A DNA stretch of 45,374 nt. Origin: a virus (taxonomy: Duplodnaviria > Caudoviricetes). The notes below the pieces were generated by a model. The model saw only the letters and a list, made by a program, of their open reading frames with translations, had not been told where the DNA came from and made no database searches. The first letter of the stretch is position 1. The number at the start of each line of letters is the position of its first letter. Below, piece after piece: positions 6,599 to 21,834 of the stretch. A program made the position numbers and the translations under genes. The stretch covers positions 1 through 45,374 of the IMG/VR virus record IMGVR_UViG_3300025112_000030; one strand, given 5' to 3'.

Positions 6599-8074
6599 TT
6601 AAGCTATCTTCCAGCTTATATCCTGATCTTCCCTGTAAGTATAATTAATTTTTCTTTCTTTTGCAATAGTTTTGTGATTAGGAGTATAACATTTCTTCAT
6701 AGCATAGAACAACCCGTCTAAAAGGTCATCATGCTTACCCCTAGGATAAAGTAAAAGCTCATCAACCATCTCTGGCAGATCATTTTGGATGAACATCTTC
6801 TTCTGTGCAAAATAAGGCTGCATAGTCTCAAGCCTTGATGATTTACTTGTTCTTGGACTCTCTTTTATCTCTAAGCCCGATATGAAGATCTTTTCTTCAT
6901 CGCATCGCTGACGAAGGTATTCCCTAAGCATCTCCTGATAGCCTACACTCTCTACCCTGACCTTTACAGGCTTAAATAGTTTGAAATATTCTATAATGTT
7001 TTCAGCAAGCTGCATGGGAGTTGCCCTTTGGCGGTAATACTGGAGAATATACCTGTTATTGTTTTCGTCTACTGCAACAGGCATGATTACAGAGTAATCT
7101 GCCGTCTTGCGTACCGAAGAAGCAGGGTCAACCCCCATGAAGACATTGACAGGGAACTCTTTATCCCCATCTGTTAAATAATGCTTATCGTTATTGTCAA
7201 ACTTGAGCTTATAGTCATGATGCTGAATATATTCCTGTTTAAACAACTGGTCCTCATCACCAGTGATCCAGCACATATATTCCCTATAAAAGACTGAAGT
7301 TCTGCCTATGGAATCCAGTTCTTCCTTCTTTTCCTTTAGTTTCGATATTGGCTGCCATTCCTCCCATAGAGCTTTGTTGCCATCCAGATCAGGGCTGAAA
7401 TGCATATTCTTCCACCCCTTCATATCCTTTAATACCTCTACCATGCATCTCTGGTGCTGTGGAGTGCCAATGACACATATCTTACCCTTCTGAGGATCCA
7501 AAGATGGTACAGCACTCTGCAGTAGCCATCTAAGATTCTGCTCCATAGCCTCGGCTGTCTTGGTGTTGTTCTCATCTTCAGGGTCATCAACTATAATCAG
7601 AGTGGGACGCTGTGAACCAACCTTAATGCCACGCAACTGCTGTCCCGTACCCTTGCAGATAATCATAGAACCGTCTTTAAGCTCTATCTCGCTCTTAGCC
7701 CATTGCCTTGCACTGTGCTGCCCCCAGTACCCGTAGATCTGCCGGAAGGAATCACTGTACTCTATGGTGTCCTTGATTGTGCCAAGGAGCTTTATGGCAT
7801 GATCTTGGGTACGGGAGACTAACACAATAAGCTTTGCCCCACTATGGTTCATGATATGATAAAGGGGATATACACCTCCAACAATAGAGGATTTAGCATG
7901 ACCACGTGGGGCAATGATATTTGCCTGCTTGATATCGTCATCCATCAGGACATCGGCTATCTGGTAATGAAACTCTGGGGAAGAGGCTGAAAACATGTTA
8001 GGCATAATCACCTTGCCGAACATGATCATATTATCTTTCAGCTTTCGCCTGATATATGACTTATCTTCTTCCAT
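6599..8074 (-). CDS. terL: Terminase large subunit
   Basis: Walker A APRGHAKS, Walker B IIVDDPE, IGTP coupling motif, nuclease GVDPA and HDDLLD. Confidence 0.93.
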   Translation of the reverse strand: MEEDKSYIRRKLKDNMIMFGKVIMPNMFSASSPEFHYQIADVLMDDDIKQANIIAPRGHAKSSIVGGVYPLYHIMNHSGAKLIVLVSRTQDHAIKLLGTIKDTIEYSDSFRQIYGYWGQHSARQWAKSEIELKDGSMIICKGTGQQLRGIKVGSQRPTLIIVDDPEDENNTKTAEAMEQNLRWLLQSAVPSLDPQKGKICVIGTPQHQRCMVEVLKDMKGWKNMHFSPDLDGNKALWEEWQPISKLKEKKEELDSIGRTSVFYREYMCWITGDEDQLFKQEYIQHHDYKLKFDNNDKHYLTDGDKEFPVNVFMGVDPASSVRKTADYSVIMPVAVDENNNRYILQYYRQRATPMQLAENIIEYFKLFKPVKVRVESVGYQEMLREYLRQRCDEEKIFISGLEIKESPRTSKSSRLETMQPYFAQKKMFIQNDLPEMVDELLLYPRGKHDDLLDGLFYAMKKCYTPNHKTIAKERKINYTYREDQDISWKIA

Positions 8075-8289
8075 TAATCACATTCATCGCTATACTGTTC
8101 ATAATAATAACCCAGATCCTCCATCTCACGGAGTGTATCTATGGCTAACTTTGCCATATACTCGGGATTGCCGTTATGCATGACTGCCAATACATGAAAT
8201 GCACTTACAGCTATCTGTAACTGCTGATCCCTGAGATTATCTTCCGTAATACCGTTATATTGTTTCTCAACTTCACTCAGGGGCTTCAT
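8074..8289 (-). CDS. Hypothetical protein
   Basis: 71-aa ORF overlapping both neighbours in the packaging operon. Confidence 0.55.
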   Translation of the reverse strand: MKPLSEVEKQYNGITEDNLRDQQLQIAVSAFHVLAVMHNGNPEYMAKLAIDTLREMEDLGYYYEQYSDECD

Positions 8290-9046
8290 GTTCTTCGCTC
8301 TTACGCTGCAGGGTAAGACGTTTATCTTCTTTTGCTATAGTATCGGCTATCTGTTTAGTCATATCCACCTGTATCGTGTCCGTTATCATCTTCTTACTAG
8401 GCTTCATCTCCAGTAAGTCCATTAAATAGTCGTTTGCCTTTAGAAAATTGTTTACATCACCCTTACTTTCTGCCATATGAAGGGCACGGAGTACATTATC
8501 AACTGCAAGCTCCTTATTTACACCCTTATCCTTTAGCAATTCCTTTAGTTTTTTCTCTATCATACGCTTTGCTACCTTTTGTTTTAGAAATCTGCGTACC
8601 GTTGCTGCCGGGATCTGTTGATCCGGTCTATATATTTTCCCAAGAGTATCAAAGTCCACCTTTCCAGAACTAAGCAGCATATGTGCGTAAGATGCAACAG
8701 TATTCTTAGCCCTAGTAGTGCCAGATTCATCATCATCCCATCTCCTCTTAGGGTTGGTCTTGCTATATACTCCATATTTGTGATTTCTCTCAAATAATAT
8801 TTTGGAGAATCTGCTGACCCAGCCCACTCCGCAGGTTAGCTTTACAAATGTCTTAGTATTGCCATGCTTATCTGTATAATCCCTGCGGTCATAGCATTTG
8901 GATACATAATCGTCATCTGTGTATGCCCAATCGCCATCATACGCCTCTTTCCAATATATTATAACAAGCCCTCGCTTGGCTGCCTCAGCTTTTGTAAATA
9001 TGTCGTATTTACTCGTTTTTCCGTTAATTCTGCGTTTTATTTTCAT
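8273..9046 (-). CDS. Putative terminase small subunit
   Basis: Upstream of terL; basic, helical C-terminal half; position-based call. Confidence 0.45.
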   Translation of the reverse strand: MKIKRRINGKTSKYDIFTKAEAAKRGLVIIYWKEAYDGDWAYTDDDYVSKCYDRRDYTDKHGNTKTFVKLTCGVGWVSRFSKILFERNHKYGVYSKTNPKRRWDDDESGTTRAKNTVASYAHMLLSSGKVDFDTLGKIYRPDQQIPAATVRRFLKQKVAKRMIEKKLKELLKDKGVNKELAVDNVLRALHMAESKGDVNNFLKANDYLMDLLEMKPSKKMITDTIQVDMTKQIADTIAKEDKRLTLQRKSEEHEAPE

Positions 9047-9131
9047 AAAAGATTTAAGTGTAGCTACTCTAAAGTAGCAGAGCTATTTATATATAGCTAC
9101 TCTATTATTATATAATAATAATAGTACTACT

Positions 9132-9341
9132 TTAATCCATACTCTTTTTTGGAGGCGGCTCTACACCTAGATTTTGAGCTACTATACGGCTGATTATATT
9201 ATATTCAGCATCAAGCTCCTCTGTGTTGGCATCTAGCTTACTTACAAACTCCTTGTACTGCTTCTCTGTCATTGTACGCTTCTCCCAAGCACCAGTCTCT
9301 AGATTAAACACCTCGTATTTCCGCTTCGCTTTAGTCTTCAT
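9132..9341 (-). CDS. Hypothetical protein, first gene of the leftward unit
   Basis: 69-aa ORF just downstream of a sigma70-like promoter. Confidence 0.55.
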   Translation of the reverse strand: MKTKAKRKYEVFNLETGAWEKRTMTEKQYKEFVSKLDANTEELDAEYNIISRIVAQNLGVEPPPKKSMD

Positions 9342-9351
9342 GTTACACTTT

Positions 9352-9380
9352 AAGTTAAGTACTCTATAATACTGCTACAA
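9352..9380 (-). promoter_or_regulatory. Sigma70-like leftward promoter
   Basis: TTGTAG-17 nt-TAACTT on the minus strand, 10 nt before the ATG at 9341. Confidence 0.4.
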
Positions 9381-9485
9381 GCCAGAATAGTTCCAGTACT
9401 CTTTTAAAAAGTACAACAAGAATGCGTGTGAGAGGAACGTAGAGTACCTACCCCCCGTTAATTCGGGTTGGGTTGGCTTAACTAC

Positions 9486-9555
9486 GTTGAGTTCAGTTAA
9501 TTGAGTTGAATTGAATTAACTCAATGTGTTCACTCGCTACTCTCACTCACTCAGA
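9486..9555. repeat. Degenerate short repeats (GTTGA/GTTCA/TTGAA, then CACT) in the divergence region
   Basis: gttga gttca gttaa ttgag ttgaa ttgaa; inverted repeat ttgagtt/aactcaa at 9501-9524. Confidence 0.5.
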
Positions 9556-9628
9556 GCACATATATCCACGCATGTGCGATCCTTTATCTAATCCTTACAC
9601 ATCACATCTGTTACATGCTACTATGTAT

Positions 9629-9654
9629 CTCCTCTATCTCTGGCAATTAAGCCA
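9629..9654 (+). promoter_or_regulatory. Repeated early motif, copy 1 (candidate phage promoter plus hairpin)
   Basis: CTCCTCTATCTC-TGGC-AATTAA-GCCA. Confidence 0.6.
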
Positions 9655-9672
9655 CATATAAAGGAGTACATC

Positions 9673-10011
9673 ATGAAACTACTAAGAGATATTTCTATCG
9701 CTATATTCACATCTATCACATCATTTCTTACACCAGATCCTGAGCCTTGGTACAGGACATGGACATGGAAGAGATGTTCTACTTGTAACAGAACACTTGA
9801 TGGTCAGAGATTTCCAGACAGTCAACAGATACTTGGAACACCAGATGATCCACTATGCGAAACCAACGGTAATTGTAAGGTTGGACTCTTAAGCCCAGCC
9901 AGTTACAATCATACAAACCTTGTAACTCAAGTCGATCTTCACGAAAAAGATTGTTGTATGAGAGATCGTCCATGGTATGATTCGCATATCTGTGATAGCC
10001 TACCATTCTAA
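9673..10011 (+). CDS. Early hypothetical protein, Cys-rich
   Basis: AAGGAG SD; CSTC and further Cys/His; followed by a terminator. Confidence 0.65.
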   Translation: MKLLRDISIAIFTSITSFLTPDPEPWYRTWTWKRCSTCNRTLDGQRFPDSQQILGTPDDPLCETNGNCKVGLLSPASYNHTNLVTQVDLHEKDCCMRDRPWYDSHICDSLPF

Positions 10012-10015
10012 GATC

Positions 10016-10045
10016 AGCCCTGCTTGTCAGGGCTTTTCTTTTCTT
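10016..10045 (+). terminator. Intrinsic terminator
   Basis: AGCCCTG-CTTGT-CAGGGCT followed by TTTCTTTTCTT. Confidence 0.75.
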
Positions 10046-10069
10046 CTACACCACCGAGTAGCAACAATG

Positions 10070-10107
10070 ATCTTTCTCCTCTATTTGTGCTGGGTTAAAT
10101 CCCCCAG
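10070..10107 (+). promoter_or_regulatory. Repeated early motif, copy 2
   Basis: ATCTTTCTCCTCTATTT (17 nt identical to 10273-10289), then a CTGGG/CCCAG hairpin. Confidence 0.6.
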
Positions 10108-10110
10108 TTT

Positions 10111-10270
10111 TGAAGAAAGTAAACTTCGGTTATATAGGCTATCTGATTTCTAGATTTGGATAGACGCTGATGGTAGGTAGCTCCTACCACTTTCTTCATT
10201 ATTTTAGGCTAATCTACAGTCGCTCACATTCTTTTCAAGATTGATTATAAGCCGACTGTAGTAGAGCCTA
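10111..10270 (+). ncRNA. Candidate structured RNA: multibranch domain plus long hairpin
   Basis: TGAAGAAAGT/ACTTTCTTCA closing stem with three inner hairpins including C(UUCG)G; TAGGCT/AGCCTA plus CTACAGTCG/CGACTGTAG. Confidence 0.5.
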
Positions 10271-10272
10271 CC

Positions 10273-10304
10273 ATCTTTCTCCTCTATTTTTGGCAACTAT
10301 GCCA
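10273..10304 (+). promoter_or_regulatory. Repeated early motif, copy 3
   Basis: ATCTTTCTCCTCTATTTT-TGGCA-ACTA-TGCCA. Confidence 0.65.
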
Positions 10305-10329
10305 TTAACAATTAAACATAGGAGTAATT

Positions 10330-10554
10330 ATGTTTAAGTCACTTAAATCATTCCTCATTAACCTTGGCTGGTTCACCGTAGGTGTAACTGCCATAGCTGT
10401 TGAAGAATCTTATAAAGCAGGTAAAATCGTTGCTGATGCCGTCAAAGACGGAGATCCGCAGAAGTATGCCCGCTATCAGATCACCCGTTTAAAGTGCAGA
10501 GAACCTCTGCATAACCATCATGACGGCTGTCCAGCTTGCGATATGCCTGTCTAA
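10330..10554 (+). CDS. Early hypothetical protein with a hydrophobic N-terminus and a C-terminal Cys/His cluster
   Basis: AGGAG SD; CREPLHNHHDGCPAC. Confidence 0.7.
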   Translation: MFKSLKSFLINLGWFTVGVTAIAVEESYKAGKIVADAVKDGDPQKYARYQITRLKCREPLHNHHDGCPACDMPV

Positions 10555-10627
10555 ACCCGTAGCCTTGCCACCTATTTAGAGTCTGAATCAGACGTAGGTG
10601 CTTGGCTACACATACATGGAGTAAAAC

Positions 10628-11092
10628 ATGTACACTCAAATAACATTAAAAAATGGCTTAACAATAGCCAACTTTTCCTCACCTCATCCATTTACATTCA
10701 CAACAGGCGAAATACTGCCAGCTTGTGAACCAGAATGGTCAAAAAAGATGTCTTTAAACGTTTATGAAGAATCTACTGAACGCAGAAAAACCAATGATTA
10801 CAATCATGGTATGATAGAAACTGTCGGTCTTTGGAGCGACACTAAAATATCAGTAGGGATACCTGACGTAGTTCGTAAGAATTTACTTCTTGTACAAACT
10901 AAATTAGACATCGACATTGTCCTTGTTTCATTTATGCTTCTTAAAGCCCTGAAAGACTGTGATGTCTATTGGGGAAAGAAAGATCTAAGTAATGGAAGAT
11001 ATCACGATCACGATAATATTTGGAAATGCCGAACCATTCGCTGTGCAGATCGAATCACTAAAGAGATCTATCCAGATAGATTCTGTATTTAA
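10628..11092 (+). CDS. Early hypothetical protein
   Basis: GGAG SD; 154 aa. Confidence 0.7.
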   Translation: MYTQITLKNGLTIANFSSPHPFTFTTGEILPACEPEWSKKMSLNVYEESTERRKTNDYNHGMIETVGLWSDTKISVGIPDVVRKNLLLVQTKLDIDIVLVSFMLLKALKDCDVYWGKKDLSNGRYHDHDNIWKCRTIRCADRITKEIYPDRFCI

Positions 11093-11117
11093 TTAGCCCT
11101 TCTCTTTATTTCAGTAT

Positions 11118-11257
11118 TAGATTATCAAACACTTGTGAGTAAGCAGATGCTGAATCGAGTGAACTCTGAAGTTGACGAACTTCTTAATGCTCAAGGTAGG
11201 ATGAAATAGCAAGGTAATCTATAATCATTGGAGAGTCATACATTTGTGTGGCTCTCC
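11118..11257 (+). ncRNA. Candidate structured RNA (multiway junction) followed by a terminator-like hairpin
   Basis: TAGATTATC/GGTAATCTA stem; inner TGAGTA/TGCTCA with three hairpins; GGAGAGTCATAC/GTGTGGCTCTCC then TTTATGTTT. Confidence 0.45.
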
Positions 11258-11296
11258 TTTATGTTTAGTAATTTAATAACAACAAAGGAGTCACTC

Positions 11297-11416
11297 ATGA
11301 CCAAAGCACAAAAAAGGCTCAAACGAGCAAAAAACAAAAAAAAGAACTTAAATGTTCAACGTTCTCATCAACAATTTAAAGAAAGTCCTAAAAGACCAAA
11401 AGAAAGGAGTCAATAA
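11297..11416 (+). CDS. 39-aa Lys/Arg-rich peptide
   Basis: AAGGAG SD before the ATG at 11297; the longer track ORF from 11228 lacks an SD and runs through a hairpin. Confidence 0.6.
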   Translation: MTKAQKRLKRAKNKKKNLNVQRSHQQFKESPKRPKERSQ

Positions 11417-11754
11417 TGGACAGCAACATGGGTTTTAGCGAAAACTTAGCAGGTGATATACACTTGATAATGGCTTATTATGACCAGTTTAGACATCTTT
11501 GTAATAACAAAGAACAAGAACATGGTGATATGTTAGAAAAAATCTCCCACCTAAAATGGGAGATTGAAGATCTCGAAACAACGATAAGTGGCATGAATGA
11601 ACATTACGAAGAACTAAAAGTAAGAAAAGATCTATTCAGGGAAAAAGCAATTGACCTCGAAAAACAAATCGAGTCTATCAATGCTCGCTGGTATAATAGA
11701 CTATATGTCTTTGTCACTTCAATACGTTTTCGATCTCCAATTACTGCTAAGTAA
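11416..11754 (+). CDS. Coiled-coil hypothetical protein
   Basis: AAGGAG SD; heptad-like pattern. Confidence 0.7.
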   Translation: MDSNMGFSENLAGDIHLIMAYYDQFRHLCNNKEQEHGDMLEKISHLKWEIEDLETTISGMNEHYEELKVRKDLFREKAIDLEKQIESINARWYNRLYVFVTSIRFRSPITAK

Positions 11755-11763
11755 TATAACTGC

Positions 11764-11791
11764 CTCCTCTATTTCTGGGCATTATGCTCAG
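11764..11791 (+). promoter_or_regulatory. Repeated early motif, copy 4
   Basis: CTCCTCTATTT-CTGGGCA-TTA-TGCTCAG. Confidence 0.6.
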
Positions 11792-11796
11792 TTATA

Positions 11797-12158
11797 GGGG
11801 ATGGCTTTAAACAAGCCAATTTCCAACAAGCCCCGCAAGACTTGGTGAACGCACCGTATAGGGTAGAGACTGTATTTAACGATGCAGTCCTGCCCTACTT
11901 GAAATTGGGCAGTATGTCAGTATTAAAAAACAAGAGTAATCTTGTTTATCTCTTCTTACGAGATGGAGAAAAATACCTTTTCTACTTGGACGCTCTGGAT
12001 AGAGCGGTAAAATACACACAGATGTGCAAATGCATAATGTGCCTTGGACATGAAATGAATAGTAAACTAAAAAACACTTAGTCTCGTTTTTATCATGCTA
12101 TTATGTGGGTTGGCTAATTGCATCCGCCTTCATTTGTGAATCCCACCATACTGCTCAA
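11797..12158 (+). ncRNA. Candidate large structured ncRNA
   Basis: 12-bp long-range stem 11905-11916/12147-12158 enclosing about 8 hairpins; long hairpin at 11859-11897. Confidence 0.55.
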
Positions 12159-12171
12159 ACTTAAGAACTAC

Positions 12172-12196
12172 TTCCTCTATTTTTGGCAACTCTGCC
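12172..12196 (+). promoter_or_regulatory. Repeated early motif, copy 5
   Basis: TTCCTCTATTTT-TGGCA-ACTC-TGCCA, almost identical to copy 3. Confidence 0.65.
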
Positions 12197-12222
12197 ACTC
12201 AATCAAACAATAGGAGTTACAC

Positions 12223-12594
12223 ATGAGTAACACACTAAAAAAGATCATAGCCAAGATGCATCAAATTGCTGAAAAAGCACCTGAATTTGATCAAAACGAT
12301 CTTTGGCTTTCCAGATCAAAGGAAACTGCCAACGGCTGGGATAATCAAGCCACATCTATAGAAGTATTGTTAGATGATCCATCAGACGAATACTTTTATA
12401 ACGTCTGGTGTAACTGCACAGATGACGGCATAAAAGCCCTTGATAGTTTTGTTGAAACAGAACTTATACCAAACGGCTTGAGACTGCTTGCAGGTAAAGA
12501 TCACGGAAATGGAAAGGTAGATCCTGATACCAGAACCTTCTCAAGAGATGGTCAATCCGTTAGATATATGATTGCTAATCCGTCAGCATCATAA
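12223..12594 (+). CDS. Early hypothetical protein
   Basis: AGGAG SD; 123 aa. Confidence 0.75.
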   Translation: MSNTLKKIIAKMHQIAEKAPEFDQNDLWLSRSKETANGWDNQATSIEVLLDDPSDEYFYNVWCNCTDDGIKALDSFVETELIPNGLRLLAGKDHGNGKVDPDTRTFSRDGQSVRYMIANPSAS

Positions 12595-12655
12595 TACCAC
12601 CACTCAATCGAGCGATGAGCAGATGATAGTGTTCACAACAGATTAAGTGATAACT

Positions 12656-12688
12656 AAGCCACGTGGGACATCCTGCGTGGCTTTTTTT
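12656..12688 (+). terminator. Strong intrinsic terminator ending the early block
   Basis: AAGCCACGTGGG-ACAT-CCTGCGTGGCTT with a 7-T run. Confidence 0.8.
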
Positions 12689-12790
12689 AATTAAAAGGTG
12701 TTCGCAGGGCGAACCCAGTACGCTTAAAGCCACCAACTGCATTTACTGCAGAATTAACGTGGGGCATGAGCAACAAGCTGCAAATACCAA

Positions 12791-12819
12791 TTGACTAAAG
12801 TGCAAACAATCACTAATTT
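12791..12819 (+). promoter_or_regulatory. Sigma70-like rightward (middle?) promoter
   Basis: TTGACT-17 nt-TAATTT. Confidence 0.35.
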
Positions 12820-12958
12820 GTGCCTACAATTTATAGGGAATTATTAACAAGATAAACCATTCTTAACCTTTAATATTACTATATTTACAGCACACCAAGA
12901 AATAAAAACACTACGAGCATTATGTTCTAGTAAACACATTAAATGAGTGGCAAAAAAC

Positions 12959-12998
12959 GGGGGGCAGTTCAAGGCTAAGGACTGCCTCCTTTATTTTT
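12959..12998 (+). terminator. Terminator-like hairpin before the middle genes
   Basis: GGGGGCAGTTC/GGACTGCCTCC followed by TTTATTTTT. Confidence 0.45.
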
Positions 12999-13027
12999 GC
13001 TAACCCTCAAATAAATAGGAGTCACTA

Positions 13028-13297
13028 ATGAAGTGTAAGCACCATCCTGATGTAGTACTGGAAGTAGTAACTACAGAAGTAAAAGAAAAAGTTCCTTGGC
13101 TGGATGAACCAGTTATAACATATAGAGAAGCAGAATATTGCCCTAAATGCTGGGGTAAGCATGAAGAAGGTGAATCAATGAGACATGATCTCACTGATGA
13201 CTTCTTATGTGAAATACAACCTGAAGAACTTGATTACTGGGAATTACAAATAGATAATTACATCGAATCACAAGTCGATGAAAGGAGAGCCAAATGA
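13028..13297 (+). CDS. Hypothetical Zn-finger-like protein
   Basis: AGGAG SD; CKHH...CPKC. Confidence 0.7.
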   Translation: MKCKHHPDVVLEVVTTEVKEKVPWLDEPVITYREAEYCPKCWGKHEEGESMRHDLTDDFLCEIQPEELDYWELQIDNYIESQVDERRAK

Positions 13298-13566
13298 ATA
13301 CATTCAAAACATTAGATGAAGTAATGGGACCAGTGCTTACAGATATTAAACGCACTAGGGAAAAAGATAGACTAGAAAATCTTGAACTAGCAGTAAGCGG
13401 TGTAGAATCATGCATTAATGACATGAATGAGACATCTCAGGAGCTTGATGAATTGTGGTCAAAACTATCTACAGTTGAAATCATATTGGAACGAACTCAA
13501 AAAAGGTTCATCAACAGAATAGCAACACTTAAAAGATACATTGAAGATGTAAAGGATCTATTATGA
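13294..13566 (+). CDS. Coiled-coil hypothetical protein
   Basis: SD; ATGA coupling. Confidence 0.7.
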   Translation: MNTFKTLDEVMGPVLTDIKRTREKDRLENLELAVSGVESCINDMNETSQELDELWSKLSTVEIILERTQKRFINRIATLKRYIEDVKDLL

Positions 13567-13757
13567 TTACAGAACAAGATGTTATTAACGATAACCTAGC
13601 CATTTACTTAGAACCAGTCTTTAAAGAAGAATGGAAACGTGTAGTAAATGAGATAGCACATGAGCATGAAGTAAATCTAAAGACAGTTGAACAACTATTC
13701 TTTGCTCATCTAGCAGTTCATTTATCATTAAATAAATTCTTAGGAGATAAAGAATGA
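13563..13757 (+). CDS. Hypothetical protein
   Basis: ATGA coupling. Confidence 0.65.
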   Translation: MITEQDVINDNLAIYLEPVFKEEWKRVVNEIAHEHEVNLKTVEQLFFAHLAVHLSLNKFLGDKE

Positions 13758-14020
13758 GTACAGCACGAATATACACAGGAATAGCTAAAGTGGTAGGATT
13801 AACTGGTTATGCTATTAATCAAACCCTTAGAGCTGCAACTGCTGTATCAAGAACTGTAGCAGATCGTGTCAACAATGTCAGACGCTATAGAATAGAACTG
13901 CTTGTTGACGGAGCTACGTTAAAAACAAAAGATGACCAATCAACCAGAGATATTGTAAGAACCATAGAAAATATGGATGATTACGGTATAACTGGTGTCA
14001 TCATACATGAACAGGATTAA
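13754..14020 (+). CDS. Hypothetical protein
   Basis: AGGAG SD; ATGA coupling. Confidence 0.7.
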   Translation: MSTARIYTGIAKVVGLTGYAINQTLRAATAVSRTVADRVNNVRRYRIELLVDGATLKTKDDQSTRDIVRTIENMDDYGITGVIIHEQD

Positions 14021-14022
14021 CT

Positions 14023-14157
14023 ATGATAATATTCGAAGTAATGGGATTTATAGTTAATCTATTCATGTTTGGTGCAGGACTGTTCCTGATCATGTGTTCA
14101 ATTATGGGTTTCATATTCATATATGACACTATCGAAAGGAAAAGAAATCGTGTCTAA
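14023..14157 (+). CDS. 44-aa membrane peptide, not in the ORF track
   Basis: MIIFEVMGFIVNLFMFGAGLFLIMCSIMGFIFIYDTIERKRNRV; AGGA SD; fills the gap between genes. Confidence 0.55.
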   Translation: MIIFEVMGFIVNLFMFGAGLFLIMCSIMGFIFIYDTIERKRNRV

Positions 14158-14353
14158 ATCAGCAAGAGCACCAGATAGGCGACCTGCCATAGCCTTTGAT
14201 GAAAAAAGTGAAGTACAGGCTATATTAGACGCTTTAAACGCCTATCGCTATGAACATATAGATAGGAATAACAACAAACTCGATGAGTATTACAGAAAAC
14301 TGATAGATGTAATTGAAGACTGTATAAAACTCTTCGACAAAGAGAAAGGATAA
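14123..14353 (+). CDS. Hypothetical protein (start possibly GTG at 14150)
   Basis: Track ORF within a packed operon. Confidence 0.6.
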   Translation: MTLSKGKEIVSKSARAPDRRPAIAFDEKSEVQAILDALNAYRYEHIDRNNNKLDEYYRKLIDVIEDCIKLFDKEKG

Positions 14354-14355
14354 AC

Positions 14356-14991
14356 ATGGAACTTATATTTGCAAAACTAGATGAAATAAAAGAGAGTAAG
14401 TACAATCCTCCTGTAAGAACAAAATCAGTTAGCAGACTGATGAAGAATATAGCAGAGAATGGACTTCTCACTCCCATACTGGTTGATAACAAGTATATCA
14501 TAATTGACGGACACAGACGTAAAAAAGCTGCAGAACTTCTGGATATGAGCGAAATACCAGTTATTGTACATGATGGAACTTCTTCACGTAAATATTCTAA
14601 GCTATTTGTAGCTACAAGCCAAGACACTATGATGATTGGCGGTAGCCAATGGCTATGGATGTATACACAGGGAAGAGATATTCCTGAAAAGCATCTGTTT
14701 AGAATAAAGAAACTGGAAGAATACCTTGGACCTGAGTTTTCCAGAGGAATGTTTATGCAGTTGATTAAAAAGAATAGATCTGCATCAACATATCAGAATG
14801 TTATGGGTATGTATCGTAAGTACACAAACAAAAGAACTAAAGCTCACATGAAAGCGTTAGCATACTATCTCTTAAATGTTGATAGCTGCTTTAAGCTTAA
14901 AAATGCTTTAGTAACATTCATACCAATTAATCTACTTACTAAGTGTATAGAGCAAAAGAAGAAGATTAATGTAGTGTGGGAAACGGAATGA
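14356..14991 (+). CDS. ParB/Srx-like N-terminal domain protein
   Basis: YNP-R...LMKNIAENGLLTPILV...IIDGHRR...IPV. Confidence 0.85.
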   Translation: MELIFAKLDEIKESKYNPPVRTKSVSRLMKNIAENGLLTPILVDNKYIIIDGHRRKKAAELLDMSEIPVIVHDGTSSRKYSKLFVATSQDTMMIGGSQWLWMYTQGRDIPEKHLFRIKKLEEYLGPEFSRGMFMQLIKKNRSASTYQNVMGMYRKYTNKRTKAHMKALAYYLLNVDSCFKLKNALVTFIPINLLTKCIEQKKKINVVWETE

Positions 14992-14994
14992 TAG

Positions 14995-15309
14995 ATGTCG
15001 TATTACAATACTACAAAAGAAGAGAAAGATCTTAAAAAATATCATTCTAAAGCTGATACACAGGATCAGATGATATTAAAATACTTTCATGAGCATGTCA
15101 TAGCCTCACCATCAGAAGTATGGGTATGGTTCAGCAGTAACAATGTTGGAAATGTACCCATTACTTCTATAAGGAGAAGTATAACAGATCTAACTAATGA
15201 AGGTAAGCTTTTCAAAACCAGAAAGAAACGTAGAGGTTATTACGGCAGAGATGAATACATCTGGACAATACCAAGCTATAACTTTACAAAGGAGAATAAA
15301 AATGCCTGA
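14995..15309 (+). CDS. Putative winged-HTH DNA-binding protein
   Basis: PITSIRRSITDLTNEGKL...KRRGYYGRDEYIW. Confidence 0.6.
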   Translation: MSYYNTTKEEKDLKKYHSKADTQDQMILKYFHEHVIASPSEVWVWFSSNNVGNVPITSIRRSITDLTNEGKLFKTRKKRRGYYGRDEYIWTIPSYNFTKENKNA

Positions 15310-16315
15310 TTATGTTGATACTATGATGTATGTAGGAGAAATGCCTTGGCACAAACAAGGTGTCATGGTAAAAGATGCTCCCACCATCAAAGATGCTATA
15401 GAACTAGCAGGTCTTAACTGGGAAGTTAAGAAAGCACCTACTTATTTTAAACAAAATATAGGTAGGAACTTTCTTAGATTTTCAGGTGTTGAGAAAGAAA
15501 CTGGTCACTATGTAACATACAGAACTGACAGAAACGAGCCTCTTGGGAATGTTTCAGGACGCTACGAGATCCTGCAGAACAGAGATGCTTTTGAACCATT
15601 TGAACCTATGCTTGACATGGGATTCAGTATTGAAACTGCTGGAGCAGTTCAAAAAGGTAGAAAGATCTGGGTTCTTGCTAAAGCACCGGATCAGTACACC
15701 GTAGGTGATGATAAGATAAATCGTTACGTATTTATGTTCACATCACATGACGGCAGCACTGGCAATTGCTTTAGAGATACAATGATCCGTATTGTGTGTT
15801 ATAATACACTTGATTATGCTCTAAGTAAAAAAGGCACTTTCGAGTACAGCTTAAAACATACAAGCAGCATTAAGCAGCGTGTAATGAATCTGAAAGAAAC
15901 TATAGCTGAAAGTGAAGGTAACTTTGCTAAAGCAATAGAAAGTATGAACAGGTTTCAGGATATAGAACTTAATGATCATACATTAAATCTTTATCTGGAA
16001 ACAGTTATACCATTCTTGAAGAACAGAAACAAAGAGAGTATTCCAGAAAAAGGAATATTCGTTAGAAATACTGCAAAGCCAGTATATGATAGATTGGTAC
16101 ATCTGTATCGTAAGGGACAGGGCAATAAAGGCAAAACTCTATGGGATGCCTACAATGCCGTGACTGAATACTATACACATGACAAACAGTACAAAGACTG
16201 GGTGCAAGCTACACAATTTGGCAAGCCTTATGACTACAAAGTCACAGCTTACAAAGTAGCTGAACAGTTTTCTAACAGTTATCATACTGAAGCTGGACCT
16301 GTCTACTATTCATAA
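15302..16315 (+). CDS. DUF932-family phage/plasmid protein (TIGR03299-like)
   Basis: MMYVGEMPWH, YEILQN, ETAG, TSHDGS, RIVCYNTL, TLWDAYNAVTEY; AAGGAG SD supports a start at 15302 rather than 15197. Confidence 0.85.
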   Translation: MPDYVDTMMYVGEMPWHKQGVMVKDAPTIKDAIELAGLNWEVKKAPTYFKQNIGRNFLRFSGVEKETGHYVTYRTDRNEPLGNVSGRYEILQNRDAFEPFEPMLDMGFSIETAGAVQKGRKIWVLAKAPDQYTVGDDKINRYVFMFTSHDGSTGNCFRDTMIRIVCYNTLDYALSKKGTFEYSLKHTSSIKQRVMNLKETIAESEGNFAKAIESMNRFQDIELNDHTLNLYLETVIPFLKNRNKESIPEKGIFVRNTAKPVYDRLVHLYRKGQGNKGKTLWDAYNAVTEYYTHDKQYKDWVQATQFGKPYDYKVTAYKVAEQFSNSYHTEAGPVYYS

Positions 16316-16319
16316 CCTC

Positions 16320-16826
16320 AAAGGAAGCGGTACAGCACACACTTCATCTCTTATGGACTCCGCAAGCCTATCAGAGATCGTACTGCTTCCTTTATTTATG
16401 CAGGTGGAGTTAGAACTTAGAGGATATCCGCAAAAGCCGTGACAATGACAGCAAGGGCTACGGCACACCTGCAAAATATGGGGAGTGGTGACGAGTACTC
16501 ATACGCTGGAGAGAGAATCTGCAACCAGCAGCACTCCCCGAAAACTTATAAGAGACACTGGGACGGATTAGGCAAGAGTGATAGTCGAGACTCATCGTAA
16601 ACATGGATATTGAATTTGTCACCATGAACGTCCCAGAAGATTTTAGCTGTGGTATCATATGATATTACATAGGAAACCAGCTCGTCAACTAATGGCATGT
16701 CTTGTTAACGACTACAGGAACCAGTACGATGGTATTGCAATACCACAGCATAACTTAAGAAACCAACAAAGGTGGGGACACTAGGATGAACGCTAGTGCA
16801 CAGCTCAGTACTCCGACCTTCCCACC
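16320..16826 (+). ncRNA. Tandem array of six candidate structured RNA units (not canonical tRNAs)
   Basis: Six consecutive domains of 56-104 nt, each closed by an 8-14 bp stem and separated by A/T-rich linkers. Confidence 0.55.
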
Positions 16827-16864
16827 CTACGGTTTAAATAACAAAACAGAAAGGAAATAAATAC

Positions 16865-17485
16865 ATGAAAGAACTGAATGTATTTCAAAAACTGAATATT
16901 GTTCAGACATCTCTTAAAGTAGAGAAAGGTCACAGAAACAATTTCGGAAACTATAACTATCGCAATCTTGCAGATATCTTTGAAGGTGTGAAACCACTAC
17001 TCAATGAATTAGGTTGCTTTCTAACTGTAGACGATGAAATTGTATGTATCAATGGATTCAACTATATCAAGGCAACAGCAACATTTAGTGATGGCAATGA
17101 CTCTATATCTGTAAGGGGATGGGCTAGAGAGTCTGTAACTAAGAAAGGTATGGACGATAGCCAGATTACTGGAGCTACATCATCTTATGCACGTAAATAT
17201 GCCTGTAACGGTCTATTTGCAATTGACGATACTAAAGATGCAGACAGTATGGATAACCGTGAAGAAACACTGATCAATGGACAAAAACCTGTTAAAGGTC
17301 ATATTACAGTAGATCAGAATGTTAAACTGGAAAGACTAAGCAGAAATCCTGTATTTAACAAAACAGATAAAGATAAAGCTAAGAAAGTAAGATCCTTCAT
17401 AGATAAGAACCCTACTGAAGAACAAGCTGATGCTGCTATAGAGAAAATTCAAATACAAATAAAAGAACAAAAGGAGGCTGCATAA
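16865..17485 (+). CDS. erf: ERF-family single-strand annealing recombinase
   Basis: NFGNYNYR and KGMDDSQITGATSSYARKY...LFAIDD ERF signature. Confidence 0.9.
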   Translation: MKELNVFQKLNIVQTSLKVEKGHRNNFGNYNYRNLADIFEGVKPLLNELGCFLTVDDEIVCINGFNYIKATATFSDGNDSISVRGWARESVTKKGMDDSQITGATSSYARKYACNGLFAIDDTKDADSMDNREETLINGQKPVKGHITVDQNVKLERLSRNPVFNKTDKDKAKKVRSFIDKNPTEEQADAAIEKIQIQIKEQKEAA

Positions 17486-18066
17486 TGCCAGCAATTAGTG
17501 AATCAATAGGAACAGTTAAATCTGTATCTATAGAATATGATGCAGAGAGAGAATGGGGTAAATGGAACCCATGCTTTGACATGTTCTTAACTGTTACATA
17601 TAACGATGGACAGAGTTGGGATAAGAAACTAGAGATCTTTGGAATGCTAAAACGTGATCTGCCAATAACCGATCAGAAAGCGTGGGGATCTGCATTCAAA
17701 GTAAGAGCGTTCTTTGAGTCCTGTACAGGCAAAAAGAGCCTCATGATGCAAGATGACTATACGGTTCCAGAATCATGGTTTGATGAAGTTGTTGGTAAAC
17801 AATTTATGGTATGCTCTTACAAGACTACCAAGATTAGAAACAACGGTAAACCATTTTGGAACACATATTCTATTGTAGCACCACCCAGTGCACTACAAGG
17901 TACTTTAAAGAATAAAGTACTCAAAGAAGTCGAACAGGGATACATCAAGAATTATGATTCAGATGATGCATCAACCGATTTTGATTATGGGAATAATACT
18001 AATAATCAATCAACAAAGACTGCAGAACCTGAAAAGGAAACTGCTGATTTTGATGTAGATATTTAG
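17485..18066 (+). CDS. Putative single-stranded DNA-binding protein
   Basis: Between ERF and primase; aromatic beta-rich core; acidic tail ending ADFDVDI. Confidence 0.5.
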   Translation: MPAISESIGTVKSVSIEYDAEREWGKWNPCFDMFLTVTYNDGQSWDKKLEIFGMLKRDLPITDQKAWGSAFKVRAFFESCTGKKSLMMQDDYTVPESWFDEVVGKQFMVCSYKTTKIRNNGKPFWNTYSIVAPPSALQGTLKNKVLKEVEQGYIKNYDSDDASTDFDYGNNTNNQSTKTAEPEKETADFDVDI

Positions 18067-18088
18067 TATTTGGTTGAGTGGTGAGAAA

Positions 18089-18118
18089 AGTATCAGGGGC
18101 AGAGATGTCCCTGATACT
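18089..18118 (+). promoter_or_regulatory. 13-bp hairpin with a GAGA tetraloop just before the primase-helicase SD
   Basis: AGTATCAGGGGCA-GAGA-TGTCCCTGATACT; no U-tract on the + strand. Confidence 0.5.
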
Positions 18119-18135
18119 AAAACGTAGGAGTTACA

Positions 18136-19962
18136 ATGGAAAAGCAAGATTGGTATTTAGAATATGCAACAGGCAGTGTAAGTAATAGAAACCAGCTATG
18201 CAGATTAGAAGACTTTTCTGAAGTTGCAAAGCTGAATGCAGGTGGAGAAATCTACCGCAGTATGTTTCTATACTCACCTGATATTGTTGCATTCGTAGCA
18301 GAGAATAACACAGTAACTGGATTTAACGGTATACAGGCAGTAGATAAGATTGTAGTAGATATAGACTATGTGAAAGATAAAACCAATGGAGATGAATTAA
18401 CTGTTACGGCAGTATTCGACATATGCGATGCTATGCATAATAAGGGCATTGAATATGGACAGCATTATCAGATATGGTTCTCTGGAACTGGCTTTCACAT
18501 TCACTTAGGCAATGTTTACGGCTTTGAGCCATCAGCTAACATTGCCAAGCAGGTTCGTGCTACTATGCAGAGAGACTGGGGTGAATATATAGATCTGATC
18601 TATGACTCCAGACGCTTAATACGAGCTGGGTGGTCATACAATCAAAAATCAAAACTGTACAAGATACCTGTACCGATTCCAGATTTAGCTAACTTTTCTT
18701 ATCAGACAATAGCTGAAAGTGCTAAGAAAATGGGTGGTCATGAAACACCATCTAAGATCAAACACGAAAAGATCGAAGGCTTAGATCCTATAGATATGAG
18801 CCGCAAGAACACAGAAGAAGTACGTAAAGTGTTTGATAATGCTAAAGGACAGACCAGCAGATATATTACATGTGCACAACACATTTATAATGCAGGGTAT
18901 GTTCCTAAGCATAGACACAAACATCTTCTTGCATTAGCCAGTATATGGCGTAAGAAATGGGGTTTAGACAAACATGGATGCGATAACCTTGCAAGGTCAT
19001 ATATGGCTAAGGTAGAGAAACCTCTACCTGCTGAAGAGACAAGCAAAGTTGTATCAGATGTATTCAAGAGCGATTACAATTATGGATGCAATCATGAAAC
19101 ACTGCAGCCTTATTGTGATAGCAAATGTATACTATTTCGATATAAGAATCTGGATGAAACATCTGGAGTGATGAATGCAGAAGATATGATCAATAAACTT
19201 ATTGAAAATGTAAACTCTGATTTCACAGACAGATCGTTTAATCTACAGGAAGTATTCCCATTCTTACCAGTAAGTCATATGTTCAAAACAGGTCAGCTTA
19301 TAACTCTTATAGGTGATACTGGTTTGGGCAAGACAGCTTTTGTACAATACTTGGTTACAAAATTAAGAAAGATCAAAACATTGTTCCTTTCATTAGAAGT
19401 AGAAGAAGACACCATGATCAGAAGATTTCTTCAAGCATCGTTAAGAATGACAGAAAATCAAATTCTTAACGGTGCTAAAAATCTAGATCCTAGGATTGTA
19501 AAGGACGGGCTTGATTCTATATCACACATAAAACTAAAATGCTCTTGTCCAGACATACAAAATCTGGCAGGATTTATTTCAGACAATGAAGCTAAAATAG
19601 TTGTAGTTGATACTATAGATCGAGTACCAGCTAAGTATGCTGGTAAAGACGATTTCGCAAGACAGGAGATAATAGCTAATAGTCTAAAAGACATTGCAAT
19701 TAGTGAAGATGTAATGATCATAGCGGTACATCACATTTCTAAAAGTGCATCTTATAGAATCAGGGAAGGACAGCGTTTGGACGTTCATAGCGGTAAAGGA
19801 AATAGTGCTATTGAACAGAAGTCCGATCAGTACATAAGTTTTGAAGGTCTTGAAGGAAGTAAGATCAGAATTATAGAATCGTTGAAAGCAAGAGATGATT
19901 CTCATTTCAAGCTCACAGTTAATTATAACTGGGAAACATTCAGTTTTGATAAACGCAACTAA
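18136..19962 (+). CDS. AEP primase(-polymerase) fused to a Cys-rich PriL/PriCT-like domain and an SF4 (DnaB/RecA-like) helicase
   Basis: AEP motifs VVDID, FSGTGFHIH, IYDSRRLIR; Walker A GDTGLGKT, FLSLE, Walker B VVVDT. Confidence 0.85.
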   Translation: MEKQDWYLEYATGSVSNRNQLCRLEDFSEVAKLNAGGEIYRSMFLYSPDIVAFVAENNTVTGFNGIQAVDKIVVDIDYVKDKTNGDELTVTAVFDICDAMHNKGIEYGQHYQIWFSGTGFHIHLGNVYGFEPSANIAKQVRATMQRDWGEYIDLIYDSRRLIRAGWSYNQKSKLYKIPVPIPDLANFSYQTIAESAKKMGGHETPSKIKHEKIEGLDPIDMSRKNTEEVRKVFDNAKGQTSRYITCAQHIYNAGYVPKHRHKHLLALASIWRKKWGLDKHGCDNLARSYMAKVEKPLPAEETSKVVSDVFKSDYNYGCNHETLQPYCDSKCILFRYKNLDETSGVMNAEDMINKLIENVNSDFTDRSFNLQEVFPFLPVSHMFKTGQLITLIGDTGLGKTAFVQYLVTKLRKIKTLFLSLEVEEDTMIRRFLQASLRMTENQILNGAKNLDPRIVKDGLDSISHIKLKCSCPDIQNLAGFISDNEAKIVVVDTIDRVPAKYAGKDDFARQEIIANSLKDIAISEDVMIIAVHHISKSASYRIREGQRLDVHSGKGNSAIEQKSDQYISFEGLEGSKIRIIESLKARDDSHFKLTVNYNWETFSFDKRN

Positions 19963-20018
19963 GAGATGGGCACAGATTCCTTTATTTGTGCCCTCTCTCC
20001 ACATACTAGGAGCAAAAC

Positions 20019-20225
20019 ATGGGAAAGATAGTAGTTAAAGTAATAGATAACCAAATTCACAGCATAGAGGGGCATGATACTCAAGTAGAAGTACATGATG
20101 ACGGTAAAATAGTGCATATGAATTTTAAAAAACAGGAATATAACTATGAAGAAAGGAAGATCATGGACCCTTCTAGGTATCCCTTTGATCAGAACGACAA
20201 CAACGGAAAAGAACTACAAAAATAG
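20019..20225 (+). CDS. Hypothetical protein
   Basis: AGGAG SD. Confidence 0.6.
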   Translation: MGKIVVKVIDNQIHSIEGHDTQVEVHDDGKIVHMNFKKQEYNYEERKIMDPSRYPFDQNDNNGKELQK

Positions 20226-20379
20226 TATACTAAGACAATATAAGATCATACTGTTAAGAACATTCCTATTAAGTGTAGGATACTCTTCATTTGAAGGCGA
20301 TAGTATCATTATACAAATAGGAATAACCAAATTGGAGTTATTCACTTCATTCACAATAAAGAACAGGTGGTTCAGATGA
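20146..20379 (+). CDS. Hypothetical protein
   Basis: Track ORF; overlaps the previous ORF by 80 nt. Confidence 0.45.
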   Translation: MKKGRSWTLLGIPLIRTTTTEKNYKNSILRQYKIILLRTFLLSVGYSSFEGDSIIIQIGITKLELFTSFTIKNRWFR

Positions 20380-20585
20380 AAGAAGTGCCCGGAGTAAAGG
20401 TATATCCAATGCCAAAAAACAAAAGAATGAGAGAGTTAATAGAAAACTTAGCAAATCTTGAAAGCTCTGATTATGATCGTTTAAGCAGTTCTGGAAGGCA
20501 TTATATAGGTAAGATATGGAATCTTCTGGGAATGCAAAGTCAGGAACAAATATCAGGGAATAAAACAGATCGGAGCACAAAATGA
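20367..20585 (+). CDS. Hypothetical protein
   Basis: Coupled to the resolvase start; own start uncertain. Confidence 0.55.
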   Translation: MVQMKEVPGVKVYPMPKNKRMRELIENLANLESSDYDRLSSSGRHYIGKIWNLLGMQSQEQISGNKTDRSTK

Positions 20586-20914
20586 GTGGCAAAGCACCAA
20601 AACAAAAAGGTAATAGAATTGAAAGAGAGTGCGTTAATTTAGCACAAGGCTATGGATTCAAATCACGCAGAGCATGGGGATCTGACGGCAGATCACTGGG
20701 CTGGCATGAAGAAGTAGACATGGTAATAGAAACTAATGGTTTCTTTGAAGACAACTTGAAGTTCCAAGTCAAGGCTAGAAAAGCTATAGCTAACTACCTA
20801 AAGCCATGTGAACACGTAGATGGACAGATATTAAGAGAAGATGGCGATAAAGATGCTTATGTCGTTATCAGATACAAAGACTTGTTGAACATCTTAAAGA
20901 TGTTGACGGGGTAG
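20582..20914 (+). CDS. Holliday junction resolvase, archaeal Hjc-like PD-(D/E)xK
   Basis: KQKGNRIERE...VDMVI...FQVK. Confidence 0.75.
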   Translation: MSGKAPKQKGNRIERECVNLAQGYGFKSRRAWGSDGRSLGWHEEVDMVIETNGFFEDNLKFQVKARKAIANYLKPCEHVDGQILREDGDKDAYVVIRYKDLLNILKMLTG

Positions 20915-21022
20915 GCTTTTTAACACATAGTATGTGTGGAAGGCTGACAAATGATAAACAGGGGACGGTTGGCTAAAACTATCCCCTGTTTTAGTGCATA
21001 TCAAAGCAATGTAGGAGTCACT

Positions 21023-21199
21023 ATGAATGCAAAAGAAATTAAAGAACTTTTAGATATTATTAGCAAGCTTATAAAAATGGCTAAAAAGGGCTATAGAATT
21101 GAAACGTCTGATGTAGAAACAGTAGATATAATTATTAATCAAATTAAGGAGGTTATTGATGGGGTCGAGTATCAAAGACTTTATGGGAAGGATTATTAA
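21023..21199 (+). CDS. Hypothetical protein (58 aa)
   Basis: AGGAG SD before the ATG at 21023; the track extension from 20951 crosses a hairpin at 20956-20991. Confidence 0.55.
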   Translation: MNAKEIKELLDIISKLIKMAKKGYRIETSDVETVDIIINQIKEVIDGVEYQRLYGKDY

Positions 21200-21431
21200 T
21201 AAACATAACATCCGTCAATTACGATCAGATAGAAACTATTGGATACAAGACTGTCGTAAAGCAGATAAAAAAATAAAGCATTGTCCAAGATGCAATAAAT
21301 GCTGGGAAACGTATAAAGAGCAGCGTGGCATTAATAACAAATCACGTAAAAGAAAAGTGTACTTAAACATGTATAAGGATTTTCCTGCATACGGAAAGGA
21401 GAAAGCAATATGCCCGATGTGCCAGAATTAG
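21156..21431 (+). CDS. Basic Zn-ribbon-like protein
   Basis: CPRC...CPMC. Confidence 0.6.
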   Translation: MMGSSIKDFMGRIINKHNIRQLRSDRNYWIQDCRKADKKIKHCPRCNKCWETYKEQRGINNKSRKRKVYLNMYKDFPAYGKEKAICPMCQN

Positions 21432-21562
21432 AAGAAGTACTCTGGAAAAAGATCCAATTGCTTATAGACGCTTTGGATACAATAATAACAACACATGCTG
21501 ACAGCGGTACTCTTAAAGAGATCGCTCGTCAAGCATTGAATCATATATTGGAGGACGAGTAA
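21410..21562 (+). CDS. 50-aa hypothetical protein, not in the ORF track
   Basis: AAGGAG SD; MPDVPELEEVLWKKIQLL...; TAATG coupling to the next gene. Confidence 0.55.
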   Translation: MPDVPELEEVLWKKIQLLIDALDTIITTHADSGTLKEIARQALNHILEDE

Positions 21563-21834
21563 TGGAGTTTACCTGTATTAAATGTGAATTTAAATTTCAC
21601 GAAACAAAAATGGACACAGATGAGCGTATGTGTTACGACTGTCTCGAAGAAGATGACACAGAGCCTACAACGGCTGATGAGTATAATAAAGTACAGAACT
21701 ATGGACCTCCCTATTCAATGGCTAATCCAACTGGAGAACCTGTTGGTGCACAACCTTACCCAGAATGGGACTGTGAAAAAGGATGTTACATCCTTCCTAA
21801 AAAGAAAGGTATTCAACATGATCCTGAGTGTTAA
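21562..21834 (+). CDS. Zn-ribbon-like hypothetical protein
   Basis: GGAGG SD; CIKC...CYDC. Confidence 0.6.
   Translation: MEFTCIKCEFKFHETKMDTDERMCYDCLEEDDTEPTTADEYNKVQNYGPPYSMANPTGEPVGAQPYPEWDCEKGCYILPKKKGIQHDPEC

Follow-up and report, generated by a model that had tools for sequence, protein, structure and literature searches.

Phage-polymerase promoters set in terminator–promoter cassettes are already a known kind of element, with Thermus phage P23-45 and the PeSL cassettes of T4-type phages as examples. In P23-45, the motif TTATTCCTTTA lies directly before mapped transcription starts and beside terminators, and is assigned to the virion RNA polymerase (RNAP) gp96 (PMC10770324). PeSL cassettes, described for phages RB49 and phi1, combine a promoter, a stem-loop and a Shine–Dalgarno (SD) sequence and serve as shuffling points, the promoters being of the sigma70 type and meant for the host enzyme (PMC2839356). 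In coliphage N4, a giant injected polymerase reads early signals specific to the phage; that enzyme is described as fundamentally distinct from gp66 of the crAss-like phage phi14:2 (PMC13434306). Here we analyse a short motif repeated along the early genes of IMG/VR virus record IMGVR_UViG_3300025112_000030, whose whole stretch of 45,374 nt we call the window. We consider it probable that the motif copies are promoters of the phage's own 2688-amino-acid (aa) polymerase, arranged as in P23-45.

Nine plus-strand copies of TCCTYTATNTNTR, all between genes, span positions 9630 to 19990 of the window (Table 1). The form TCCTCTATTT is exact at 10077, 10280, 11765 and 12173, and TCCTCTATCT at 9630 departs from it by a single change; these are the five main plus-strand copies that an earlier note on this DNA had listed, with coordinates that include the preceding base, and all five are confirmed. 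That note had confined the copies to the first 2.6 kb of the early block, a limit refuted by four further copies that it missed, at 11255, 12987, 16388 and as far along as 19978, in which T replaces C (TCCTTTAT). A relaxed pattern finds the nine copies in the early block plus five matches elsewhere or on the opposite strand. The 8-mer TCCTCTAT occurs five times in 9401–13100, against a mean of 0.062 and a maximum of 2 in 2,000 dinucleotide shuffles; in the same interval any 10-mer reached four copies in 2 of the 2,000 shuffles, and any 8-mer five copies in 60. The fuller motif is TCCTYT-ATNTNT-R, often with ACTGCT in front.

Relatives give the same answer. We built a matrix from 85 sites in 14 relatives, leaving the window out, and scored both strands of the whole window with it; the matrix recovers the copies: eight of the nine are the window's eight top matches (16.5–29.2 bits), followed by minus-strand matches of 11.0 bits (the reverse of an SD sequence) and 10.1 bits (inside terL), and then by the ninth copy, at 11255 (8.3 bits). 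No minus-strand virion gene is headed by a top match. The weaker copy once suggested near 11099 scores −7.7 bits and is not supported. A 130-nt segment with a hairpin that starts there (11099–11227) is absent from the near-identical contig L005 and may be a degenerate small cassette.

We then examined the early blocks of 45 relatives. In the 16 genomes chosen for carrying TCCTYTAT, the early strand has 104 sites and the opposite strand 36; 101 of the 104 early-strand sites lie outside called open reading frames (ORFs), which cover 41–83% of the stretch (8-mer seed). Beyond the seed's A, positions 4, 6 and 7 are T, T and purine at 96, 94 and 99% of sites in these genomes, giving the consensus ACTGCTTCCTYT-ATYTNTRR. 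The tail NTNTNTR is kept by relatives and the upstream hexamer varies by lineage; other lineages have, for example, CTCCCTT, GCTCTTT, CACACCC or TKCTAT in the same register. When no constraint was put on the tail, T occupies positions 2, 4 and 6 in 91, 95 and 89% of 117 intergenic matches from 15 genomes of such lineages, and G or A position 7 in 94%; the in-ORF matches (n = 20) are without such T's. A clear motif is present in 28 of the 34 genomes of the main clade. The signal is family-wide. A larger set of 183 sites, selected using the tail and drawn from related genomes that are not independent, is used for much of what follows.

The placement of the sites is promoter-like. A start codon follows within 60 nt at 122 of the 183 sites, with leaders of 17–49 nt counted from the purine, and 150 sites lie no more than 5 kb from the TerL start. 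In the window, as noted before, three of the main copies stand ahead of an SD sequence and ATG (9673, 10330 and 12223), and copies 2 and 4 ahead of non-coding DNA that folds strongly (z −4.5 and −7.8); altogether three copies head folded non-coding units (z −4.5, −7.8 and −6.2; 12 shuffles each). Because the motif heads both protein genes and non-coding units, it is better read as a promoter than as a translation signal. Sigma70-like sites in the window are at chance level (36 versus 32.7 expected), in line with the earlier remark that no such boxes were noticed; in the leaders, a 10/12 match occurs in 5 of 30 (3.0 expected) with no conserved site, and a −10-like box precedes the purine at 9 of the 183 sites. 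Since sigma70 boxes are missing and the signal changes from one phage lineage to the next, its likely reader is the phage polymerase.

A strong terminator-like hairpin lies upstream of 94 of the 183 sites and reaches into the motif in 81. The terminator that had been placed just before copy 2 is indeed found, as a terminator-like stem (10016–10034) 42 nt upstream. A promoter is the simplest reading of the motif because the sites follow terminator-like stems and leave no room for a second promoter before the SD sequence, and because the signal is constant whatever RNA structure surrounds it. These same hairpins bear on another reading, in which the copies play no part in initiation and are no more than the tails of terminators and sites of recombination that gene shuffling has made uniform. 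The upstream stem that enters the motif at 81 sites would fit it, as would the T-rich lineages, which resemble plain terminators, and an extra motif–gene–terminator cassette that contigs L004 and L005 (TerL 100% identical) carry at copy 3, bounded by motif copies. However, a strong upstream hairpin is missing at 89 of the 183 sites and at 23 of the 30 first sites (present at only 7), and terminators right before ribosome-binding sites (RBSs) need a restart signal, for which no sigma70 site is conserved there. We regard this reading as very unlikely.

The likeness to PeSL cassettes lies in repeated units among small ORFans in a variable region, with exchange at the repeats, which in our material rests on the single L004/L005 insertion event. 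The difference is in the promoters: the sites described here are without −35 and −10 boxes.

Each of the five main copies is followed by a small hairpin, as claimed earlier, with TGGCA-N4-TGCCA at 10291–10304 and 12184–12197. Across relatives the downstream hairpin is optional, being present at 19 of 100 sites, where shuffles give a mean of 1.7, and at 27 of 183 in the larger set; its loops are 3–8 nt, 25 hairpins share no loop sequence, and 41 of 100 sites have neither an upstream nor a downstream hairpin. The first G–C pair falls on the conserved purine in 20 of the 27. Because the first pair usually sits at the final purine and the hairpin is optional, it is probably a stem-loop at the 5′ end of the RNA rather than an N4-type promoter hairpin.

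Hairpins beside the motif above chance, together with the preference of gp66 for single-stranded DNA in vitro, are what speaks for a DNA-hairpin promoter like those of coliphage N4, the analogy drawn in the earlier note. N4-type promoter hairpins stand upstream of the start at every promoter and have a three-base loop geometry. Upstream hairpins with three-base loops occur at 2–6 of the 183 sites (shuffle mean 2.0), whereas the hairpin actually seen is downstream, optional and variable in its loop; further, such a promoter would be read by a T7-like polymerase (palm, fingers, thumb), but the modelled core (residues 691–1400) of the enzyme matches two-barrel polymerases instead. The hairpin analogy is therefore not supported, and we give an N4-type promoter hardly any probability. 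What remains in common with N4 is a set of phage-specific early signals for a giant polymerase, injected in N4 and probably so here; the two polymerases are of different classes.

We think equally little of a lambda nut-like boxA/boxB antitermination site, the second idea raised earlier. In its favour, the CACTGCTTCCTTTA of many copies is similar to the rrn CAC-boxA CACUGCUCUUUA (PMC2724277), though two bases longer, and may have a small hairpin behind it. Yet the boxA sequence YGCTCTT(T)A (PMC2724277) is exact at 1 of the 183 sites, the 3–8-nt loops have no consensus in 25 hairpins, and the sites come after terminators and recur before almost every cassette.

The main rival to the promoter reading is that the motif acts in RNA and marks where a long early transcript is processed, the CCU-rich motif hiding the SD sequence until cleavage near the purine. 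The mean accessibility of the SD sequence (fraction unpaired) is 0.21 with the motif in the RNA versus 0.61 for RNA starting at the purine (n = 122), pairing is possible between copy 4 and a ATAGGGGA further downstream that is kept in contigs L005 and L033, and processing would produce the same 5′ ends as a promoter. Against this, pairing of the motif with its own RBS is no stronger than with the other RBSs in that genome (stronger in 47 of 108, p = 0.51), the structural context varies, with 41 of 100 sites having neither hairpin, and the terminator-like hairpins ahead of half the sites would interrupt a long transcript. We judge processing unlikely. The related suggestion of an anti-SD element finds no site-by-site covariation, and generic occlusion of the SD sequence in read-through RNA may still occur. 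As a separate observation, copy 4 is an imperfect palindrome (11765–11801) made of the motif, its hairpin and then ATAGGGGA, a near-motif on the minus strand; 45 bases here are kept in L005 and in the relative G009, and the changes within them leave the inner stem intact.

With the motif taken as a promoter, two start bases come into question. The purine after the 12-mer is somewhat likely to be the start; we favour it because the A of ATNTNT is missing at 60 of the 183 sites, with the purine and hairpin position kept. That A is a possible but rather unlikely start, and it is where an alignment of TTCCTTTA, the core common to this motif and that of P23-45, would place it. In both phages a short pyrimidine-rich motif recurs on a single strand ahead of the first small genes, next to terminators and free of −35 and −10 boxes (PMC10770324). 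The P23-45 11-mer TTATTCYTTTA itself is not matched, the consensus here being ACTGCTTCCTYTATYTNTRR, and the shared letters may be convergent. Here a conserved TNTNTR extension leads into SD-bearing leaders, whereas in phage P74-26 the last A of the motif is mostly the A of the ATG.

The presumed reader is the last gene product of the virion operon. Its catalytic GADKDSD motif occupies residues 1179–1185 (28133–28153); among 94 homologues for residues 720–1360, 93 have G[AS]DxDxD, and an alignment of 51 rows shows no variation in R-x-P, GG and the three Asp. An AlphaFold model of residues 691–1400 (pLDDT 87) covers the catalytic core out of the 2688 residues, as do the fold matches to it. Its best Foldseek match is phi14:2 gp66 (6VR4, E = 1.5e-10), followed by QDE-1 and RDR2, and VIA comparison gives QDE-1 Z 17.9 (root-mean-square deviation (r.m.s.d.) 4.1, 433 aligned), P23-45 gp64 Z 13.5 (4.8, 368), gp66 Z 12.8 (4.5, 522) and gp96 Z 11.3 (4.8, 310). 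From this model we predict a gp66/QDE-1-type two-barrel RNAP, of another class than the N4 enzyme; N4 vRNAP and T7 RNAP are not among the 50 Foldseek and VIA matches listed, which by itself excludes nothing. Searches of Pfam, PHROGs and PDB sequences returned no hit for the 2688-aa protein, and tblastn with the RNAP core against 50,697 GenBank phage records gave no match. Judging from its gene position, the polymerase is probably packaged in the virion and injected with the DNA. The earlier proposal of a phage-specific promoter read by this enzyme, stripped of its N4 hairpin, is thus supported by the two-barrel motif and predicted fold on one side and by the intergenic, strand-specific, family-wide and promoter-like placement of the sites on the other.

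Like gp96, the enzyme would be a single-chain two-barrel polymerase; it differs in being free-standing and in a podovirus, the P23-45 RNAP being fused to the tape measure, and no second polymerase gene was recognised in the window, unlike P23-45. With phi14:2 gp66 it shares the giant size, the position in the virion gene block and the DxDxD site, and long non-coding early RNAs are also reported for phi14:2 (bioRxiv 2020.03.07.982082). The phages themselves differ, the window being a 45-kb genome with an SU10-type capsid, a P22-type portal and SD-led genes. Among other observations on the enzyme, precomputed annotation gives PF13532/PF03171 domains for several homologues (P0005, P0018, P0033 and others), and in several the catalytic core has insertions within or beside it.

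Several points weigh against a promoter of this polymerase. First, no motif common to the upstream regions of early transcripts was reported for gp66, the closest virion enzyme (bioRxiv 2020.03.07.982082). Second, the signal is less clean than the counts suggest: the lineage hexamers were picked after viewing the data, in T-rich lineages the T tract of the terminator makes up part of the tail and inflates it, and a purine at position 7 also occurs in 75% and 65% of in-ORF matches (n = 16 and 20). Third, within the main clade no clear motif could be defined in G032 and G038, and G021–G024 have a weak T-rich motif only. Fourth, the 8 genomes of a basal clade carry the polymerase but lack such a motif; a second polymerase was sought in the clade's early block and not found, the 610–660-aa genes there being without a conserved DxDxD. 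Finally, motif distance follows polymerase distance (Mantel rho 0.43, 29 genomes) in a way inseparable from kinship, and there are exceptions: in a quick polymerase tree, the sister polymerases of G009 and G003 (core 64% identical) go with different hexamers, and the window and G009 (polymerase 45%) share one hexamer. A sliding-window comparison of 19 polymerases located no specificity region.

Relatives lacking the polymerase were sought through a TerL alignment, among the best 80 of 471 matches, all at least 68% identical. Every tested record at least 90% complete carries the RNAP (7/7; 3/3, 3/3 and 1/1); G004, G056 and G057 show no RNAP match but are fragments (31, 80 and 55% complete). In another comparison, G009 and G003 are 90–92% identical to the window in TerL and only 44–45% in the polymerase core, which belongs to another clade and suggests, from sequence identity, that the polymerase module was exchanged. 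The basal clade has features of its own: the word ATACCCTACAA occurs once or twice in seven of its 8 genomes, and in G043 (L194:7189–9985) and six other genomes the early 610–660-aa gene is followed by a Prok-JAB gene (E = 3.6e-8). The former contains an HPF...N.C.G word reminiscent of prokaryotic E2 proteins, and the pair is possibly a ubiquitin-like system.

The basal clade, with its polymerase and no motif, would also suit a promoter for the host RNAP working with an unusual sigma or with a phage specificity factor, perhaps the possible winged-helix gene at 14995–15309, for which the hints are weak (E = 0.006–0.2, all below cut-off). Bacteroidota promoters have a −7 box TAnnTTTG with TTG 19–21 nt upstream, and TATNTNTR resembles this box in register. 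The likeness did not survive counting: TAnnTTTG is exact at 14 of the 183 sites, the A is missing at 60, and TTG is in the −33 slot at 12 versus 23 in a control slot. Moreover, 17-nt leaders are too short for a downstream −10 box, the hexamer differs among close phage lineages, and SD sequences, on which this phage relies, are lacking from Bacteroidota mRNAs (PMC6847099). We therefore doubt this alternative strongly.

If the motif is a promoter of the phage polymerase, the enzyme would read the pyrimidine-rich 12-mer and initiate at the purine just after it. The RNA would then open with the optional hairpin, as a protective 5′ stem-loop, and the upstream hairpin, its T tail often formed by the motif, would terminate the unit before. 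The result would be terminator–promoter–RBS–gene cassettes that double as gene-swapping points, with nine early and middle units of the window each headed by a candidate promoter. For start-site recognition by crAss-type virion polymerases, the motif is a candidate of 13 bases that comes with a predicted start base and, in nature, some twelve or so variants alongside diverging enzymes; such polymerases, with a predicted fold near that of the eukaryotic RNA interference (RNAi) polymerase QDE-1, now appear in compact podoviruses outside the crAss-like group. What the present analysis adds is the non-crAss family, the lineage series and the predicted start base. Literature searches returned no paper on the phage family or the motif and none on a gp66-type promoter, most subscription papers and bioRxiv supplements lying outside their reach. 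More tentatively, and at less than even chances, the whole may amount to a gp66/QDE-1-type virion-RNAP promoter in an undescribed family of marine 45-kb podoviruses, whose constant alternating-T tail and lineage hexamer would form natural orthogonal pairs like those of T7, T3 and SP6, and which would drive undescribed structured RNAs, one of them present in ocean RNA libraries.

That RNA lies in the unit behind copy 4, which is about 390 nt long (11777–12165) and folds with z −6.0 (100 shuffles), with a predicted closing helix of about 11905–11917 with 12147–12158. RNA contigs from four runs (three samples, two studies) cover 11915/11926–12146/12156 at 99% identity or more, and the covered part coincides with the predicted closed domain. 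The runs were picked by their share of 9300–13300 (all small, 0.05), and the contigs carry no strand or end. The sole other piece in 8000–21000 is a partial 47-nt match at 18036–18082, and 21000–40900 has only short partial matches of lower identity. DNA carry-over into RNA libraries is possible, and uncovered motif sites carry no weight as evidence; the coverage is a hint that copy 4 is followed by a stable RNA and implies nothing about where that RNA starts. The unit is found only in near-identical relatives, an exact 19-mer search returning one near-identical contig only, and Rfam gave no match at gathering score in 9000–17000. Another unit, at 16400–16850 on the plus strand, has a middle part (about 16520–16650) with homologues in about 11 relatives, which also resembles part of a unit at position 3221 of G016; this may possibly be an undescribed RNA family.

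Table 1. Coordinates of the motif copies, neighbouring elements and polymerase gene in the window (bits, score on the 85-site matrix)
Feature	Position	Strand	Remarks
Motif copy 1, TCCTCTATCTCTG	9630..9642	+	Predicted start G9642; hairpin 9641-9654; heads ORF 9673-10011; 16.5 bits
Terminator-like stem and T tail closing first cassette	10016..10044	+	Stem 10016-10034
Motif copy 2	10077..10089	+	Predicted start G10089; hairpin 10089-10108; 19.9 bits
Structured non-coding unit behind copy 2	10089..10272	+	z −4.5; middle differs in near-identical L004/L005
Motif copy 3	10280..10292	+	Hairpin TGGCA-ACTA-TGCCA 10291-10304; heads ORF 10330-10554; 20.1 bits
Terminator-like stem 11230-11257 with motif copy	11230..11267	+	Motif forms the stem's 3′ arm and T tail
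Motif copy	11255..11267	+	Heads small ORF from ATG 11297; 8.3 bits; L005 equivalent reads TCCTCTATTTTTG
Motif copy 4 (numbering of the earlier note)	11765..11777	+	Predicted start G11777; hairpin 11775-11791; 27.4 bits; conserved complement ATAGGGGA downstream
Structured non-coding unit behind copy 4	11777..12165	+	
Motif copy 5	12173..12185	+	Hairpin TGGCA-ACTC-TGCCA 12184-12197; heads ORF 12223-12594; 24.8 bits
Terminator-like stem 12959-12990 overlapping motif copy 12987-12999	12959..12999	+	Heads operon from 13028; 24.8 bits
Motif copy	16388..16400	+	Window's best score, 29.2 bits; heads structured non-coding unit (to about 16850; z −6.2) before ERF/primase-helicase genes
Motif copy after primase-helicase gene	19978..19990	+	Heads ORF 20019-20225; 24.8 bits
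Single-chain two-barrel RNA polymerase (predicted fold), 2688 aa	23621..31687	−	Last gene of virion operon

The window is a genome of about 45 kb, of podovirus type, from an uncultured marine phage, and its nearest relatives are IMG/VR contigs. TerL, the SU10-type capsid and the P22-type portal (library matches) are all on the minus strand, as is the virion block, whose final gene, the 2688-aa ORF, comes after four small G/Q-rich ORFs. The plus strand carries small ORFans from 9673 and then ParB, DUF932, ERF, primase-helicase and resolvase genes, and genes of the window are led by SD sequences. A TerL search of genome contigs found nothing; a search of genome contigs with the polymerase alignment found one 46-kb contig (L208), within the record of Prochlorococcus sp. 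AG-436-M02, which may be a co-sorted particle rather than an infection, and we claim no host.

Between terS and the first motif, a non-coding leader (9400–9600) is conserved across dozens of relatives, with the words GAATGyGTGTGAGAGG, TACCCCCC, GTTGAGTT and AATCCYTAC, and is a candidate genome end, packaging or origin signal. A sigma70-like site just before it (9342–9370) is without conservation in relatives. Finally, tRNA genes occur amid the early cassettes of some relatives: a scan of seven relatives' stretches gave one tRNA, and among 24 relatives scanned two have a tRNA-Tyr gene, at L162:14833–14912 (minus strand) and L184:5663–5742 (plus strand).

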